A DNA stretch of 64,000 bases from Crocinitomicaceae bacterium. GTDB lineage: Bacteria; Patescibacteriota; Minisyncoccia; Phycocordibacterales; UBA1006. The translations under genes were made by a program, and so were the position numbers. Positions 3,548-43,637 of the stretch are shown here, one piece after another; the first letter of the stretch is position 1, and each line of letters begins with the position of its first letter. The notes beneath the pieces were generated by a model. That model saw only the letters and a program-made list of their open reading frames with translations. It searched no databases and was not told the DNA's origin. The DNA lies in NCBI GenBank assembly GCA_047637555.1, contig JBLIKX010000001.1, positions 8,294-72,293 on the forward strand, read 5' to 3'.

Positions 3548-4672
3548 TTACTTAAAGTAGGTAATAGATTTTTTTATTATAAAAATTATTTTCGATGAAA
3601 AGATTTTTTTAATTTTTTGTAATAAGGATTTTTTAGTGAATATTTTTCTCGCACCTAATGATTTTGAAAATCTTTTTTTACTATTACCCTTTATCTTGTA
3701 ATATATTTCTAATTTTTCTGGAGGCATATTGATGACCTCTTTGCATGAAGTTGAACAAGTCATTTCCATTTTTTGTTTGCAATGCATACACTGAAGAAAT
3801 AAAAGATTACAGGCATAATTGACGCAGTTTACATGCCGATCACATTTATTTTTACATTGATTACAGTGAGATATTATTATATCTCCAATTTTTTCTGGGT
3901 CTCTTTTATCAAATACGTAATTAGAGCCAAGGAATCTATTCTCTAGTCCCTCGCGCTCTACTTGGTGTTTATAATCAATAATGCCACCATGTAATTGATT
4001 AGTATCCTTAAACCCTTTATCTTTTAGATAGGCAGATGCTTTTTCACAACGTATACCCCCAGTGCAATACAGTAATATTTTTTTGTTCTCGCTCCCTGAT
4101 AACTCCGCAGCAACCACAGGTAATCCCTCACGGAAAGTATCTATTTGCGGAGTGATTGCTCCATCAAAATAACCAATTTCAGATTCATAATGATTGCGCA
4201 TATCAACCACAATTGAATTATTATCTTTCATAGCCTTGTTGAATTCTCCCGCAGTGAGATGATTACCCACATTTTCAATATCGTAATTACCCAAGGTCAA
4301 ACCGTCAGCCACAATTTTTTTTCTTATTCTTACTGAGAGGCGATGAAAAGAGGTGTTATGGTGAACTCCGATTTTAAGAGGTACATTGTTAAATTCAGAG
4401 ATAGTATAAAGTTCAGATTTAAATTGATCCCAGTTATGTTCAGGAACCGACATTTGAGCATTGATTCCCTCAGATGCAATATAAATTCTACCAAGACAAT
4501 CTAGTCGTTCCCAGGTGGAGAAAAGTCTCTCGTGCATTTCTCTCGTATTATTGATTACAATATATTTATATAATGAAACAGTGATTCGATTAAATGTTTC
4601 ACTTTTAAGTTTGAGAATTGCTTCTTCTTTGGATAAGCCATAAGGTATTTGTTTTTTACCAATTCGTTGCAT
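3548..4672 (-). CDS. trhO: rhodanese-domain tRNA uridine(34) hydroxylase TrhO (UPF0176/YceA)
   Basis: 'YIASEGINAQ' signature, rhodanese active-site 'CTGGIRCE', Cys-rich C-terminal region, Lys-rich tail. Confidence 0.7.
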   Translation of the reverse strand: MQRIGKKQIPYGLSKEEAILKLKSETFNRITVSLYKYIVINNTREMHERLFSTWERLDCLGRIYIASEGINAQMSVPEHNWDQFKSELYTISEFNNVPLKIGVHHNTSFHRLSVRIRKKIVADGLTLGNYDIENVGNHLTAGEFNKAMKDNNSIVVDMRNHYESEIGYFDGAITPQIDTFREGLPVVAAELSGSENKKILLYCTGGIRCEKASAYLKDKGFKDTNQLHGGIIDYKHQVEREGLENRFLGSNYVFDKRDPEKIGDIIISHCNQCKNKCDRHVNCVNYACNLLFLQCMHCKQKMEMTCSTSCKEVINMPPEKLEIYYKIKGNSKKRFSKSLGARKIFTKKSLLQKIKKIFSSKIIFIIKKSITYFK

Positions 4673-4953
4673 ATATTTATTCTAACCAAAGGTAAAAATT
4701 TTTCAATAAAAAACTGCACCCTTAACAAGGTATGGATCACTCTTATAGACCTCACAAATCATTTCAAGAACTAATACTTGAAACAAAATTCTTAGTATAG
4801 TTTAGGATACCCAGCAATAACTTTTTAGCGTGAACTCTCTCCAGCACAACTTTTTTAGTACAACAGAGACATATTGACCTCAACCGAGGGTCCTGTATTC
4901 AAATATAAACTCTAGAGTGCAATGTTTTTTTTATCACTAGATGTCAATGATCT

Positions 4954-18924: not shown

Positions 18925-19410
18925 ATGAGTATGTTTCTCCAAAGGTATTCTGTTTCACAGAAAATTGTTAAACCTCTTATAGCACTTGTAATTATAGCAT
19001 TTGTTATTATTTTTTTTCAGTATTTATCCATAAAGAATAATCAATTTGTTAATCGTAATGATTTATTGGTAATGATAGGTGGCGAGGTACTTGAAACTCA
19101 GATATCAGACCGTCCCGATGAAAGGCGTGTTGGCTTATCAAACCATACATCACTAGGAAAAAATGAAGCAATGCTTTTTGTTTTTGATACACCTGGACCT
19201 CATTCCTTTTGGATGAAAAATATGGATTTTCCAATTGACATTATTTGGTTAGATTCTAACAAAGAGATTATATATATAGAGGAAGATGTCAGCCCAGAGA
19301 CTTATCCAAAAAGTTTCTTTCCAAATAAGAATGCCACATATGTCCTTGAGGTTGTTTCAGGATTTAGCAAAAAAAATAATATACAAATTGGAAATAAATT
19401 ATCATGGTAA
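18925..19410 (+). CDS. DUF192 (COG1430) domain protein with N-terminal membrane anchor
   Basis: 'MLFVFD...FWMKNMDFPIDIIWLD' is the DUF192 core. Confidence 0.6.
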   Translation: MSMFLQRYSVSQKIVKPLIALVIIAFVIIFFQYLSIKNNQFVNRNDLLVMIGGEVLETQISDRPDERRVGLSNHTSLGKNEAMLFVFDTPGPHSFWMKNMDFPIDIIWLDSNKEIIYIEEDVSPETYPKSFFPNKNATYVLEVVSGFSKKNNIQIGNKLSW

Positions 19411-19945
19411 ATTTAGAACAAAAATTAAAAAAAGTACGAGATAGCTTATTCCTATTTTTTAATAATTACTGTTTTTTCACCTATGCTATTTGTGTTTATT
19501 CAAGAAAGAATTAAGTTGACTGAGATTTTTTAGAATATGAATGAGGTCAAGAGCGCAGATAATTAATAAAGAAGAGTATTAATTAATACATTAAATGCTG
19601 AATATTTACTCCCAGTAGTCTTAATTATCTTAGTTGCTTAAGACATACAAATTTGTGCTTATTGCTGACGATTATCATATTAACATTAGGTATATGATTG
19701 AAATTGCAATTATATGAATTATTCTTGAGCTACTCCTTAACTATCCGTCTACCTTAGACTTGTGCAAATTATTCTTGTGATACTTGGTCTTTGGTTAGCT
19801 ATTATTTATCATATTTTTATCCATTTATGATAAATGAACCACTCTGTTTGGTTATTACCTAATGTGCTTGAAAATTAAGCTAATGTGGTAAATTAAATGT
19901 AGTTGCCGACCATGTTTAAACTTAAACAGGTCTGTGGTTATTATC

Positions 19946-19988
19946 GCCATCATAGCTCAGTTGGTAGAGCGCCACCATGGTAAGGATA
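19946..19988 (+). pseudogene. truncated tRNA-Thr(GGU)-like 5' half (acceptor, D-arm, anticodon loop only)
   Basis: 'GCCATCA-TA-GCTC-AGTTGGTA-GAGC-G-CCACC-ATGGTAA' gives a canonical acceptor strand, D-arm and an anticodon loop reading GGT. The 3' anticodon-stem strand ('GGATA') does not pair, and no T-arm or 3' acceptor follows. Confidence 0.5.
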
Positions 19989-20005
19989 CGAGGCTGAGTG
20001 AGTAC

Positions 20006-20036
20006 AAAAAAACCACAGCAATAAGCTGTGGTTTTT
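20006..20036. terminator. rho-independent terminator (serves minus-strand rnpB; bidirectional)
   Basis: CCACAGC-AATAA-GCTGTGG hairpin with a 7-A run 5' and a 5-T run 3'. Confidence 0.65.
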
Positions 20037-20040
20037 ATAT

Positions 20041-20364
20041 GTTTATGTCGATAAGCCGGATCCTGTCTAGGGTAATCATTTATCTTGATTATATGTCACC
20101 ATATAATTCCTTGCGGCACTCTGAATAAATTCAGTACGACTTTGCATGTGGGTAAGGGTTTAGCCGTTTCACTATCTATGTCACCATAGAAATTCATCTA
20201 CTAGAGATGCCATCATCTTTCGAATTAGGCGTCACTGCTCGCACCTCGCGTATTACTACGGACAGGGGTTACCTGCTACCATTTTTGAACTCCGAAGAGT
20301 AAAACATGTCCGGACTTTCCTCACTTTCTGGTAAACCAGATTCGCGCGATTACCTAACATAAAC
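20041..20364 (-). ncRNA. rnpB: RNase P RNA (bacterial type)
   Basis: On the minus strand: P1 is GUUUAUGU (5') pairing with ACAUAAAC (3'). P3 is the hairpin CUGGUUUACCAG. The P4 5' strand is 'AGUGAGGAAAGUCCGGAC' (consensus GGAAAGUCCGG). CR-II-like is 'GUGAAACGG'. CR-III / P4 3' strand is 'GACAGGAUCCGGCUUAUCG' (consensus ACAGAAnCCGGCUUAUCG). Total about 324 nt. Confidence 0.8.
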
Positions 20365-20445
20365 ATTAGTAGTGTACGGTATGTTATTAAAAATACAAAT
20401 AAAAAAAGCAGATATACTGCTTTTCTTTTTCTAAAAGAAAAAATT

Positions 20446-20568
20446 ATTTTTCCTCTTCTTTTTTTGTAAGTTGAGTTAAATCAAATACCTCACAGTTATA
20501 GCTTTCTCCTGGTTCAGAACAATCGGTCTGGATTGACACTGACATTTCATCTATGGGTGTTTTCTTCA
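20446..20568 (-). CDS. possible 40-aa small protein (MKKTPIDEMSVSIQTDCSEPGESYNCEVFDLTQLTKKEEEK)
   Basis: ATG ORF immediately upstream of rnpB, followed by the hairpin AGCAG-ATAT-ACTGCT and a T-run (20407..20430, read on the minus strand). Confidence 0.25.
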
Positions 20569-20643
20569 TGATACTAAGTTTTTTCTAGTATAGCTAAAAT
20601 ACACTATTCTTGGCAAGTCCTTTTATGTGGATATACTGGATAT

Positions 20644-21336
20644 ATGAACTTCCACATAATAACTATTTTCCCAAACCTTTTTGACTCCTATCTAGGAGAT
20701 TCGATGATGAAAAAAGCCATTGATGCAAAAAAAATAAATATTCAATTCTATAACCCACGAGATTACACTCAGAATAAACATAACAAGGTAGACGACATTC
20801 CTTATGGTGGAGGTCCAGGCATGATCATGACGGTTGATCCTATTATGCGTGCATGGAATTCTGCTCGATATAAAAGGAGCGATAGTAAATTTATACGTCT
20901 CTTAAAAACAGGAAGAATTAATGGGGTAAAGAAATATAAAACCGTAATTTTGTCTCCAGGAGGAATAGAATTTACAACTAACTATGCAAAGGAAGCCGTT
21001 AACAATTACACCGATATCATTTTTATTTGTGGTCGTTATGAAGGAATTGATGCACGTGTTGCTCAGATTATTGGAGTTGAGGCAGAGGATGTTTCTATTG
21101 GTAATTATGTATTAACTGGGGGGGAATTACCTACGATGGTCATGATTGATTCAATTTCACGCCAAATAGACGGAGTTTTAGGAAATACTAATTCACGAGA
21201 GGAAGAGCGTATTTCGTCACACGAAATGTATACACGCCCAGCTGAGTATAAACATAATAAAAAAACCTATTCAGTACCAGATGTTCTTACGAAAGGGAAC
21301 CACAAGTTAATAAATGAATGGAGAAAAAACCACTAA
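20644..21336 (+). CDS. trmD: tRNA (guanine37-N1)-methyltransferase
   Basis: 'IITIFPNLF', 'DDIPYGGGPGM', 'CGRYEGIDARV', 'SIGNYVLTGGELP' TrmD/SPOUT motifs. Confidence 0.8.
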   Translation: MNFHIITIFPNLFDSYLGDSMMKKAIDAKKINIQFYNPRDYTQNKHNKVDDIPYGGGPGMIMTVDPIMRAWNSARYKRSDSKFIRLLKTGRINGVKKYKTVILSPGGIEFTTNYAKEAVNNYTDIIFICGRYEGIDARVAQIIGVEAEDVSIGNYVLTGGELPTMVMIDSISRQIDGVLGNTNSREEERISSHEMYTRPAEYKHNKKTYSVPDVLTKGNHKLINEWRKNH

Positions 21337-21398: not shown

Positions 21399-21938
21399 AT
21401 GAACTATAGAAAAAAAGAACAGATTCTAATTCCTAGAGATAGACATTCTTCTGATATGAGCACTATTTTTATTTCAGATCATGATTTATTCCCAACTCAG
21501 CTCAAGGTTATTGAAAAGATGCACGGACATGATAAGAGGCAGATAGAAAACATAACGAGCACTCACTTACCTAATCGCTATGTTTCATTTCAAGATTGGA
21601 TAGAAGTTGTCATGAATTATGTACATGACCCTAGTGTTTCTGGTATTTATATTGTAATACATCGAGAATGGAAGACTAGATTCATCAAAGAATATATAGA
21701 ACCTGGAAAGGTTAATGGGGCTTTGATTGGTTGGTTTACGGGGTTTGGTGAAAAAGAATATCTTAGTCATGTAAAACAAAAAATGACTTATATATGGCAT
21801 GGTTGCGTTCTTGATTTTGATATCGAGAAAAATTTTGGAAGGACCCCTGTTATTAAGAAACATCGCAAGAAAAAAGATTCTATTTCTGAACTTAAAATAA
21901 CAAGGCCGAATAAAACACAACAAAGAAGAAAAAAATAG
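21399..21938 (+). CDS. hypothetical protein with a basic C-terminal tail
   Basis: ORF only, in an AT-rich stretch. Confidence 0.35.
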   Translation: MNYRKKEQILIPRDRHSSDMSTIFISDHDLFPTQLKVIEKMHGHDKRQIENITSTHLPNRYVSFQDWIEVVMNYVHDPSVSGIYIVIHREWKTRFIKEYIEPGKVNGALIGWFTGFGEKEYLSHVKQKMTYIWHGCVLDFDIEKNFGRTPVIKKHRKKKDSISELKITRPNKTQQRRKK

Positions 21939-22041
21939 TAAAAACCCCCATATATTTTAAGTATATGGGTTTTTATATTTGACATTTCAAAAATTGAATT
22001 TATAATTGATTTAAAATAAATAATAATTTAATAAAAAAAAT

Positions 22042-23208
22042 ATGAAAAAAAAATGTGATTTTGGATCAAAAGCTTTTAATATTGCTGCATATTTACTTAT
22101 TAATAAGATTAAAAATATTACTTTTGATGGTGCTGCTGGCACAGGAAAAACTACTTTTGCTCGCAGGTTAAAAGAATTTTGCGAGATAAAAGGGATAAAT
22201 GTTGCACTCACAGCTGTAACTGGAACTGCTGCAAATAATATTGGTGGTGTAACTATCTCTAGTTTTTGCCAGTTGAGAACTTACAATTTAGAAGACCATG
22301 AGATTATTGAGCGTAATCAATTAGTTACTGCATTGTTGCGGCTAGTAAAAATACTTGTTATTGATGAAGTTAGTATGCTAACTGATGAGCAATTAAGACA
22401 AATAAACATTGCATGTCAGGCGGCAAAAGGAAACAAAAAACCTTTTGGTGGTATTTCTGTATTGCTAATGGGCGATCTTTGCCAACTTGAGCCTATAGAG
22501 ATCAACGATGATGAAATTATTGCTATCGATTCTGTCTTGGAAACAAAAGAGTATTTAAAAAAACTAAATTTTACTCAAATTCGTTTAAAAAAAAATTATA
22601 GACAGACAGATGAAAGAAGTCTTTATTTTTTAAATTCTTTAAGAAATATGATTGTTAATAAATCCATTAATAAAACAAAGATTAATGAGTTGTTTAATTT
22701 TCTCAAAAAAAATACTTCTCATGGAATACATCTTTATTCAAACATTAAAGATGTACCCTTAGAAGAGTTTAACCCAAGTCATTATTATTATTCAAAAGGT
22801 AATGCTCCTTATACGGCACTTCCTATAATGTATGGTTATAATTATCTAATAACAAAAAATACTGATAATTATTTTAATGGTCAGCATATTGTTCTAAGCG
22901 AAGATAACGAAGAAGAATTTCTTTATCAAGACTTTTTATATAAAAAAGAGTCAGGTTTTGATAATAATGGTACAGCATGCTTGCACACTGTTTTTGATAG
23001 GGTTATTGCAGAATATTTAGCATTGATTCCTTTGAGTGATATGACAACACGTCGCGTTCAAGGATCTACCTTTGATTCAGGATGCATTGCATCTGAATTT
23101 TTTGCTGAAGATAATAAGGTACTTCAAGTATCTTTAATTGGTTGGCTGAAAACATTATATACAGCACTTGGTAGATTTAGAGATCTATCTAATGTTTCGT
23201 TGTGTTAA
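22042..23208 (+). CDS. Pif1/RecD-like SF1B DNA helicase (compact, 388 aa)
   Basis: Walker A 'DGAAGTGKTT', 'TAVTGTAANNIGGVTISSF' (Pif1 motif Ia/II region), 'LVIDEVSML' (DEAD-like), 'LLMGDLCQLEPI', C-terminal 'RRVQGSTFD' (motif V/VI-like). Confidence 0.6.
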   Translation: MKKKCDFGSKAFNIAAYLLINKIKNITFDGAAGTGKTTFARRLKEFCEIKGINVALTAVTGTAANNIGGVTISSFCQLRTYNLEDHEIIERNQLVTALLRLVKILVIDEVSMLTDEQLRQINIACQAAKGNKKPFGGISVLLMGDLCQLEPIEINDDEIIAIDSVLETKEYLKKLNFTQIRLKKNYRQTDERSLYFLNSLRNMIVNKSINKTKINELFNFLKKNTSHGIHLYSNIKDVPLEEFNPSHYYYSKGNAPYTALPIMYGYNYLITKNTDNYFNGQHIVLSEDNEEEFLYQDFLYKKESGFDNNGTACLHTVFDRVIAEYLALIPLSDMTTRRVQGSTFDSGCIASEFFAEDNKVLQVSLIGWLKTLYTALGRFRDLSNVSLC

Positions 23209-37087: not shown

Positions 37088-37093
37088 TTTATG

Positions 37094-37166
37094 AGCCACC
37101 TATCAGATTCGAACTGATGACCTATTGTTTACAAAACAATTGCTCTACCAACTGAGCTAAGGTGGC
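37094..37166 (-). tRNA. tRNA-Thr (anticodon UGU)
   Basis: The reverse complement folds as a canonical 73-nt cloverleaf. Acceptor GCCACCT/AGGTGGC has 7 Watson-Crick pairs. D-arm is GCTC-AGTTGGTA-GAGC. Anticodon stem is ATTGT/ACAAT with loop TTTGTAA. T-arm is ATCAG-TTCGAAT-CTGAT. Discriminator is T. No encoded CCA. Confidence 0.85.

Positions 37167-42416: not shown

Positions 42417-43637
<1,221 letters not shown>

Follow-up and report, generated by a model that had tools for sequence, protein, structure and literature searches.

A type A RNase P RNA gene and a probably non-functional partial copy of tRNA-Thr(GGU) in a fast-changing spacer of an uncultured Patescibacteria-type bacterium

Can a tRNA sequence that stops just past its anticodon loop, and that faces an RNase P RNA gene across a shared terminator, be a working gene of an unfamiliar kind? 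The question is raised by a locus of an uncultured Patescibacteria-type bacterium, contained in a 64-kb stretch of DNA that was analyzed as a whole and is called the window here. The gene order is a DUF192 gene, a species-specific spacer, and then the convergent RNase P RNA gene (rnpB), a small minus-strand ORF and trmD. According to the codon count, half of all Thr codons are ACY, which must be read either by a working tRNA-Thr(GGU) encoded somewhere or through superwobble of the UGU tRNA. We consider it likely that the locus combines an ordinary type A rnpB with a non-functional partial copy of tRNA-Thr(GGU) in a fast-changing junk spacer. The best reading of the tRNA piece is genomic debris and not a new kind of tRNA gene. 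The elements concerned are as follows.

19411..19834, no strand assigned: species-specific, AT-rich non-coding spacer (26% G+C), which has no counterpart in relatives
19804..19835, no strand assigned: perfect 10-bp hairpin (inverted repeat I8, ATTTATCATA / TATGATAAAT), whose 3' foot is the left indel breakpoint
19835..19983, plus strand: 149-bp block, present or absent by haplotype comparison, made up of 111 bp of non-tRNA sequence and tRNA positions 1-38
19868..19898, plus strand: promoter-like hexamers read from the sequence, TTGAAA (19868-19873) and TAAATT or TTAAAT (19889-19898), the latter preceded by TG
19908..19932, plus strand: putative leader hairpin GACC-A-TGTTTA / AACT / TAAACA-GGTC, seen in the minimum-energy and centroid folds
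19946..19985, plus strand: tRNA-Thr(GGU) fragment, positions 1-40
19984..20007, plus strand: interval that separates the fragment from the terminator, with unusually high variation between haplotypes
20008..20036, both strands: bidirectional intrinsic terminator (stem and T runs), common to rnpB on the minus strand and to plus-strand transcription
20036..20365, minus strand: rnpB, a bacterial type A RNase P RNA of 330 nt, recognized by its RF00010 match and by pair covariation
20401..20427, no strand assigned: further terminator-like hairpin, lying between the small minus-strand ORF (upstream of the hairpin) and rnpB (downstream of it)

The RNase P RNA of the host is encoded on the minus strand and has the slightly reduced type A form that is usual in Patescibacteria. 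The RF00010 covariance model matches over its full length (model positions 1-367) with 96.6 bits and an E value of 7.4e-30, which confirms the rnpB placed on this strand by the preliminary description and extends it slightly from 20041..20364. The score lies just below the Rfam gathering score of 100 bits for this family, and a gathering-mode Rfam scan misses the gene. In a three-sequence alignment of syntenic orthologues, 26 of the 76 predicted pairs have changed on both sides and are still paired, and P1 has compensatory changes in 7 of its 10 pairs. The P4 strands, GAGGAAAGUCCGG... and ACAG.AUCCGGCUUA, pair together and are aligned at high posterior probability, and their pairs are invariant in all three sequences. 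The 3' motif ACAGGAUCCGGCUUAUCG, formerly labelled CR-III, is the 3' strand of P4, which is CR-V in the usual nomenclature. Orthologues of rnpB adjoin the small ORF and trmD in L021, L022 and L029-L032, where they score 89-118 bits against RF00010, and a partial match of 37 bits, cut by a contig end, adjoins the DUF192 gene in L020. A scan of a genome collection with TrmD recovered relatives at 35-44% identity only, without synteny.

As had been proposed, rnpB ends at a strong bidirectional terminator. The terminator consists of a 12-bp stem with five G-C pairs, a 5-nt loop, and T runs on both strands, and it is homologous to one that lies directly 3' of the DUF192 stop codon in L021, L020 and L030.

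On the plus strand, tRNA similarity is perfect and then stops. The fragment reads GCCATCA TA GCTC AGTTGGTA GAGC G CCACC ATGGTAA GG and comprises the acceptor 5' strand, the D arm, the 5' strand of the anticodon stem, the anticodon loop, and two nucleotides more. All 40 of its bases match the first 40 of an intact tRNA-Thr(GGU) gene in L012, which represents another Paceibacteria-like organism, and the two sequences diverge afterwards. BLAST matches of the fragment to tRNA genes stop at 19985..19987. The final GG is followed by ATAC..., which permits only two of the five anticodon-stem pairs. No tRNA can be formed from the fragment, which lacks the 3' strands of the anticodon stem and acceptor (no TGATGGC is found) as well as the whole T arm. 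The truncated 5' part first noted on this strand is thus real, with tRNA similarity ending at 19985. Neither ARAGORN nor the Rfam tRNA model makes a call at 19946..19985, and RF00005 has no match over 19300-20800 at E values up to 10. The sole tRNA called in the window by these two methods is tRNA-Thr(UGU), at 37093-37166. Its D arm had been described as nearly identical to that of the fragment; an exact match of 18 nt exists at 37142..37159, but the D arm is generic.

The fragment breaks off where the anticodon loop ends, near the canonical tRNA intron position and the split site of archaeal tRNAs (PMC3218864), and group I intron-containing tRNA genes have been reported in bacteria of the Candidate Phyla Radiation (CPR), whose tRNAs sometimes carry such introns (PMC8172020). 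The locus might therefore be a functional but disrupted tRNA-Thr(GGU) gene that is split, permuted or intron-containing, with halves joined at the RNA level, and a permuted or intron-containing gene had been suggested previously. However, no 3' half was found across the 64 kb, either by short-query BLAST with the 3' half of the L012 gene or with a T-arm regular expression and a T-arm/acceptor pattern at three mismatches. The only pattern match, at 43498, lies inside the tgt gene and was rejected. No 3' exon, T arm or acceptor complement that would complete the fragment, and no separate 3' half gene for a split tRNA, was found in the window. No group I intron was matched by Rfam around the fragment, no Nanoarchaeum-type leader complementary to the 20 nt 3' of the fragment occurs within the 64-kb window, and nothing tRNA-like that would indicate a permuted arrangement lies upstream in 19411..19945. 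What comes next on the same strand is the terminator and then antisense rnpB. When ARAGORN was set to allow introns of up to 3 kb at relaxed thresholds, so as to reveal a complete intron-bearing tRNA starting at 19946, it produced nothing but noise, such as a 'tRNA-Ile' at 19946-20154 that draws on antisense rnpB. The half is also missing from some strains and from all relatives, as described below, and we regard a disrupted functional gene as extremely improbable. The idea of an intron-containing or permuted tRNA is accordingly dropped.

The tRNA fragment is not ancestral at this site. No tRNA or tRNA fragment is present there in nine related contigs. In L020, L021, L029, L030 and L031-32, the distance from the rnpB 3' end to the upstream gene is 30-170 nt and contains neither; in L022, rnpB is inverted and the gap is similar; and in L033 and L034, in both of which rnpB is unmapped, no tRNA was called. 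The spacers of these relatives (30-170 nt) are not homologous to that of the window, and the sequence 19411..20006 is specific to the window species. DNA homology with the closest relative, L030, begins at 20007, exactly at the terminator. Across close relatives, the convergent spacer between the DUF192 gene and rnpB ranges from approximately 0 to 600 bp. An AT-rich Pif1 islet had been linked to the truncation of the tRNA, but the link is unsupported: this islet is 2 kb off, beyond trmD, and trmD adjoins rnpB in all relatives.

The fragment is also variable within the population. The 149-bp block that carries most of it is present in the window and in nine independent assemblies (L013-L018 and L025-L027) and absent from two (L001 and L019), and the fragment is therefore dispensable, since some strains lack the block. 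The boundary of the block is ambiguous by 2 nt (AA). A chimeric join of part of a tRNA locus to rnpB during assembly might be suspected, given an uncultured source organism and the existence of short-contig variants. However, the nine assemblies with the long haplotype come from different samples and from both the JGI and Logan pipelines and are nearly identical, with 0-1 SNP in 1033 bp, and the short haplotype was found twice independently, which makes the chance of such an artefact close to negligible. Both forms co-occur in sample 3300054697. The samples that contain this organism are JGI 3300054695-7, 3300054976 and 3300063179, and SRR28416765, SRR28416796, SRR28416802, SRR28416806 and SRR28417279.

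The two haplotypes differ in more than the block. Five differences are packed into the 13 nt at 19994..20006, namely substitutions at 19994, 19996, 20001 and 20004 and a deleted A at 20006, whereas the flanks differ at 1-2 positions per 1 kb. On its right side, the indel ends at 19981-19983, within 2-4 nt of the end of tRNA similarity (19985). This coincidence and the cluster of differences are not fully explained by simple decay. In the short haplotype, two pairs of the hairpin at 19804..19835 are lost, through T19828C and through the junction itself.

These data bear on whether a complete tRNA-Thr(GGU), perhaps the only one of the genome, lost its 3' half in place, with the short haplotype representing a second, larger deletion. 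The fragment is intact to position 40, promoter-like hexamers and a leader hairpin lie upstream, and tRNA identity extends 2 nt beyond the indel boundary. The long form is the major allele (nine assemblies versus two), and the perfect hairpin is degraded in the short form, which also fits such a loss. Against it, none of the nine related contigs has a tRNA at the site, the 22 nt that follow the fragment show no significant residual similarity to a 3' half, and two independent breakpoints 2-4 nt apart would be required. Decapitation in place is possible but unlikely on balance. The proposal that an insertion or deletion lies behind the truncation holds insofar as a 149-bp indel carrying the fragment separates strains, but is less well supported in the form of an ancient gene decapitated where it stands.

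An alternative origin for the breakpoints is the footprint of an element with a tyrosine recombinase directed at the anticodon loop of tRNA-Thr(GGU), which would have used this locus as a secondary site and left half of an att sequence. The break falls at the anticodon loop, a 7-mer of sequence ATGGTAA (19977-19983), and directly beside the left junction there is a similar one, ATGATAA (19827-19833). However, these repeats are spaced 150 nt apart, against an indel of 149 nt, and recombination between them is not predicted to give the short allele, ACGATAAA. Neighboring genes within about 10 kb contain no integrase or transposase domains and no other mobile-element gene, and nothing similar was found in viral contigs. 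Also, the retained part is the 5' part of the tRNA, whereas elements that target tRNA genes reportedly duplicate the 3' part. Such a footprint is very unlikely.

The spacer had been described as non-coding, and indeed no ORF of at least 40 amino acids lies wholly inside 19411..19945. The spacer at 19411..19834 has no Rfam, phage or plasmid match, and its folding z-score is only -2.0. When the origin of the spacer and of the 149-bp block was sought in phages, plasmids and viral contigs, the tRNA part alone matched anything. A direct repeat reported there, 'aattattcttg', does exist (16 of 18 bases, 50 nt apart), but it is at about the chance level in DNA of 26% G+C; self-matches of 11 nt are plentiful in the window at E values of about 8. 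A 13-nt repeat, CTGTGGTT(A/T)TTAT, was also rejected as being at about the chance level. Separately, an avoidance of TGA stop codons suspected from a sample of 26 ORFs was discarded, as TGA ends 4 of 58 ORFs.

Because promoter-like hexamers and a terminator accompany the fragment, expression, and hence some function, is possible. A promoter scan tool predicts a different and weak site, at 19915-19944. The putative leader hairpin is directly upstream of the fragment, and the region 19900..20040 folds at -45.1 kcal/mol with a z-score of -4.1. Together with the strong terminator, these features might suit a functional small RNA, such as a tRNA-half-like regulator or a decoy of RNase P or of tRNA-binding enzymes. 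However, the terminator and leader hairpin account for most of the z-score, the element is missing in the short haplotype and in all relatives, and the adjoining stretch is free to vary between haplotypes. We consider a small RNA with such a role very unlikely. More broadly, the 5' piece could be expressed from its own promoter and used, either as part of a trans-assembled tRNA-Thr(GGU) or as a strain-variable tRNA-half small RNA, with its partner or target outside the window. This is highly improbable. If true, a trans-assembled tRNA-Thr(GGU) would be the first bacterial split tRNA.

To return to the interpretation that we favor, the plus-strand piece would be a partial copy of a tRNA-Thr(GGU) transcription unit, consisting of upstream sequence and tRNA positions 1-40. 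It would sit in a non-coding spacer that arose in the window species alone, with the DUF192 gene on one side and the terminator of rnpB on the other. We infer that an illegitimate (microhomology-type) insertion or a partial duplication brought the fragment here from a genuine tRNA-Thr(GGU) locus. As for the short allele, it may represent the state before insertion or, slightly more likely in our judgment, a later deletion, which might have joined the hairpin at 19804-19835 to the palindromic anticodon region. At most, the locus would yield a short transcript of approximately 90-135 nt that stops at the shared terminator. What speaks against a dead copy, besides the need to read ACY codons, is that no intact tRNA-Thr(GGU) preceded by these 111 bp came to light: a public metagenome DNA scan, which also missed window-like contigs, returned only L012, from another organism, as an intact source gene. 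A search for the tRNA-Thr(GGU) locus of the host by way of the gene that neighbors the L012 copy did not identify an orthologue. A likeness of the 111-bp block to the sequence upstream of tRNA-Thr(GGU) in L035 was rejected, because 2004 of 3000 shuffles scored equally.

Both parts of the locus can be compared with known systems. The RNase P RNA resembles RF00010 type A RNAs in its P1-P4 core, with both P4 strands, in its P8/P9 hairpins of the GNRA type, and in P18. It departs from the model in a shortened P12 (20 model positions reduced to 4), a reduced P15-P17 region (33 reduced to 12), about 15 additional nucleotides inserted after the 5' strand of P4, and GAGU aligned to the GGGU of L15. 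These deviations are within the range already described. For RNase P RNAs of CPR bacteria, scores under the Rfam thresholds are reported to be frequent (Lui et al. 2021, PMC8172020), and like those type A RNAs, the lineage of the window straddles the Rfam cut-off at 89-118 bits. Pipelines that apply this cut-off will report some genomes of this lineage as lacking rnpB.

The tRNA fragment shares with the split tRNAs of Nanoarchaeum equitans and Caldivirga (PMC3218864, PMC2237900) a lone 5' piece that ends past the anticodon loop and has promoter-like sequence upstream. Unlike those split tRNAs, it is found in a bacterium, is dispensable in the population, and has an incomplete anticodon stem, and neither a 3' half nor a complementary leader was found in 64 kb. 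Group I intron-containing tRNA genes are known in cyanobacteria. As in such genes, the break in the window is at the anticodon loop and tRNA finders miss the sequence, but instead of a matching intron and a 3' exon, the window has a terminator and antisense rnpB. In annotation, the fragment should be taken neither for a tRNA-Thr(GGU) gene nor for a sign of split or intron-bearing tRNAs; it illustrates that half a tRNA in a reduced genome, however flawless it looks, can be debris that varies among strains. The segregating 149-bp indel and its linked cluster of substitutions offer a convenient view of illegitimate recombination as it occurs naturally in an uncultured organism. Tracts at the borders of genomic islands are usually the 3' part of a tRNA, whereas the piece in the window is a 5' part with its upstream sequence and is accompanied by no integrase or island. 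In other respects it resembles truncated bacterial tRNA genes such as those at island borders, being a partial tRNA without a cloverleaf that lies in variable non-coding DNA and is polymorphic among strains.

The most plausible reading of the tRNA piece between the DUF192 gene and rnpB is a partial, dead copy of a tRNA-Thr(GGU) transcription unit, situated in fast-changing junk between convergent genes. A 149-bp block (19835..19983) carries this piece, and the surrounding features are as follows.

Features of the locus, in window coordinates
18925..19410, plus strand: DUF192 gene, left border of a gene-free stretch of 1.2 kb
19868-19873 (TTGAAA) and 19889-19898 (TAAATT or TTAAAT), plus strand: promoter-like hexamers, inside the block
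19908..19932, plus strand: leader hairpin, inside the block, upstream of the tRNA piece
19946..19985, plus strand: tRNA piece, GCCATCA-TA-GCTC-AGTTGGTA-GAGC-G-CCACC-ATGGTAA-GG
20008..20036, both strands: bidirectional terminator hairpin at the rnpB 3' end, 12-bp stem with T runs on either side
20644..21336, plus strand: trmD, right border of the gene-free stretch
22042..23208: Pif1-like helicase, beyond trmD

The preliminary description reported the 5' part of a tRNA that ends past the anticodon loop and has no T-arm, and this is real: the piece is identical at 40/40 positions to contig L012 of another organism. L012 was the one contig matched when public metagenome contigs were scanned with the 40-mer, and there the same 40 nt open an intact tRNA-Thr(GGU) gene recognised by ARAGORN. 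The flanks in L012 are unrelated to the window, and the gene next to the tRNA shares 87% identity with a 'Candidatus Paceibacteria' protein. Paceibacteria-type tRNA-Thr(GGU) genes in four further contigs (L035-L038) match the window less well, with several differences in the 5' half, so the identity with L012 is not trivial. Past position 40, the intact gene reads TGGAGGTC...TTCAATT...TGTTGGC, and the window reads ATACGAGGCTGAGTGAGTAC and then the terminator. Similarity between the stretch after the piece and a tRNA 3' half is not significant, and BLAST against phage and plasmid records matched only the tRNA part of the spacer, with matches stopping at 19985-19987. The piece has neither a T arm nor the acceptor 3' strand, and 2/5 pairs of its anticodon stem are possible. 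It cannot by itself be a tRNA.

An exact look-up of the DUF192 and TrmD proteins yielded contigs of this organism in eleven assemblies. Nine (L013-L018, L025, L026 and L027) have the long form seen in the window, with 0-1 difference from it in 1033 bp of intergenic region, and two (L001 from JGI 3300054697 and L019 from SRR28416806) have a short form without 19835..19983. The block comprises 111 bp of non-tRNA sequence and tRNA positions 1-38. The short form also differs at 19828 (T>C), 19994, 19996, 20001, 20004 and 20006, and its flanks show about 2 differences from the window per 1400 bp. The polymorphism for the block is real, and strains can do without the half tRNA. Assembly error is ruled out, because each form occurs in more than one assembly and both occur in sample 3300054697 (L001, short; L027, beginning at 19832, long). 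The earlier suggestion of truncation by an indel was right in outline, in that a 149-bp indel carrying the piece segregates among strains.

The gene order S26 peptidase, DUF192, rnpB, small ORF, trmD, rpoB is kept in related contigs, and the relatives of TrmD are named Patescibacteria, Pacebacteria or Minisyncoccia. In L021 and L020, a homologous terminator and rnpB 3' end directly follow the DUF192 stop, the gap measuring 30 and 37 nt respectively. The closest relative with the gene order, L030 (TrmD 79% identical), has a gap of about 170 nt of unrelated sequence, and its DNA homology (77%) starts exactly at 20007, the terminator start. In L029 and L031/L032 the gene upstream is a different one, and 33-50 nt separate its end from rnpB; L033 and L034, where rnpB was not mapped, are outside this gap comparison. 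The related contigs (L020-L022, L029-L034) have no tRNA gene and no copy of the D-arm motif of the piece. The entire spacer (19411..20006) is species-specific, because the related contigs have no counterpart at the site. It is AT-rich, with 26% G+C, versus 34% for the whole window, is not notably structured (folding z -2.0) and, the tRNA piece apart, matched no known sequence in Rfam or in BLAST of phage and plasmid records.

No relative has a tRNA at this site, so DNA of a tRNA-Thr(GGU) locus must have come into the spacer within this lineage. The present 149-bp difference might be that original insertion, with the short form ancestral; the indel ends on its right within 2-4 nt of where tRNA similarity stops, a coincidence that one event accounts for. 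We lean slightly towards a later deletion from an ancestral long form. The long form predominates (9 assemblies versus 2), a perfect hairpin is degraded in the short form, tRNA identity continues 2 nt past the indel, and a hairpin or palindrome occurs at each breakpoint. Deletion also fits the general preference of bacterial genomes. On the left the break falls at the 3' foot of the perfect 10-bp hairpin (19804..19835), and on the right at the anticodon-loop end, within the palindrome ACCATGGT; junction homology is 2 nt (AA) and no more. Simple recombination between the 7-mers ATGATAA and ATGGTAA was rejected, since the short allele is not the expected product and their spacing is 150 nt, not the 149 bp of the indel.

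Left of the terminator, the haplotypes differ by 4 substitutions and a 1-nt deletion in 13 nt (19994..20006), and by about 0.15% in the flanking kilobases. This cluster is linked to the indel and adjoins the junction; our guess is that error-prone repair synthesis during the indel event produced it.

A short non-functional transcript might possibly run from the hexamers to the terminator. In the intact tRNA-Thr(GGU) genes of L035-L038, as in the piece, promoter-like hexamers are followed by a hairpin that stands about 15-35 nt before the tRNA 5' end (L035 5810..5865; window 19895..19945). These upstream sequences have no significant similarity, and the common layout may be coincidence. A regulatory tRNA-half RNA is improbable: the piece may be expressed, but it is conserved neither among strains nor among species. 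An integrase footprint at the anticodon loop would fit the break position; however, about 10 kb around the site is free of integrase and other mobile-element genes, the retained tRNA half is the wrong one, and nothing similar occurs in viral contigs.

The proposed link to a Pif1 islet is unsupported: the helicase lies beyond trmD, and the interval from trmD to rpoB varies on its own among relatives. This slot holds a 179-aa protein without assigned function and the PIF1-like helicase in the window (21399..23208), a PIN/PhoH protein in L022 (5746..7107), small proteins without assigned function in L029 (3719..4132) and L031 (3189..3626), and a pilin-like (N_methyl) gene in L032 (3053..3826), where it precedes a 53-aa fragment duplicated from the end of trmD. 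Between rnpB and trmD, a 41-aa ORF (20444..20569, minus strand) without a Pfam match has a counterpart at the same position in L030 (2217..2333, 38 aa, 51% identity), with the common motif MKKTPI.EMS...CSEPGE.Y. It is probably a real small protein, with no function assigned; in L022, a longer ORF may fill its slot.

The rnpB gene reported on the minus strand has coordinates good to within 5 nt, and it ends, as described, at the bidirectional terminator. An E-value-threshold search with RF00010, the model for bacterial type A RNase P RNA, matches 20036..20365 (minus strand) over the whole model length (96.6 bits, E 7.4e-30). The score is 3.4 bits short of the gathering score of 100 bits, and the all-Rfam search at curated thresholds matched only the tRNA-Thr(UGU) gene (37094..37166). 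The gene aligns well to the model over P1-P3, both P4 strands, the P8/P9 hairpins and P18, with a shortened P12 and P15-P17 region and about 15 extra nt after the P4 5' strand. The 3' motif previously labelled CR-III is the P4 3' strand, which we take to be CR-V, not CR-III. The gene is genuine. In an alignment of three orthologous rnpB sequences, 26/76 predicted pairs still pair after two-sided changes, most of P1 included. At the equivalent position, L022, L021 and L029 score 118, 105.5 and 103.9 bits, L030, L032 and L031 fall below 100 (95.3, 90.6 and 89.2 bits), and L020 has a partial match (37.3 bits) interrupted by the contig end. According to Lui et al. 2021 (PMC8172020), RNase P RNAs of the Candidate Phyla Radiation (CPR) often miss Rfam thresholds and have lost peripheral helices, and the window rnpB is an ordinary member of this known diverged group.

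The L15 'GGGU' of RF00010, the CCA-binding motif, aligns to GAGU in the window, which agrees with the loss of this motif reported for most CPR RNase P RNAs (PMC8172020). The intact tRNA-Thr(UGU) gene (37093..37166, minus strand) encodes no 3' CCA and ends ...GGTGGCTC. In L022, the genes on either side (DUF192 and trmD) are the same but rnpB (4356..4675, plus strand) points the other way, with terminator-like hairpins on both sides, which implies that a small rnpB cassette flipped in place during the evolution of the group. NCBI labels proteins of the window's organism (P0001, P0079) 'MAG: Crocinitomicaceae bacterium' (Bacteroidota). TrmD, gene order and RNase P RNA all place it with Patescibacteria/Paceibacteria contigs, and 185,579 species genomes yielded no close relative; the public label probably reflects an error in binning or taxonomy.

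The preliminary description also raised a permuted or intron-containing tRNA, and neither reading holds in the window. ARAGORN called only the tRNA-Thr(UGU) gene, in agreement with Rfam, and gave nothing credible when introns were allowed at default and relaxed settings; Rfam matched no group I intron. The acceptor complement TGATGGC occurs 4 times, never behind a T arm. Searches for a T arm, for the L012 3' half (by BLAST) and for a T arm joined to an acceptor strand, with three mismatches allowed, gave nothing credible in the window beyond the tRNA-Thr(UGU) gene. A single match from these searches, within the tgt gene, is due to chance.

A split tRNA gene with its partner elsewhere in the genome is unlikely, because the piece varies between strains and is dispensable, and because relatives have neither a tRNA gene nor its D-arm motif at the site. 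A partner 3' half, the sole path to a surprising outcome at this locus, is very improbable. A Nanoarchaeum-type split gene requires a complement of the sequence after the fragment, whereas the window contains none for the 20 nt that follow the piece. Everything at the locus belongs to a known kind, either RNase P RNA of CPR type or a fragment of a tRNA gene.
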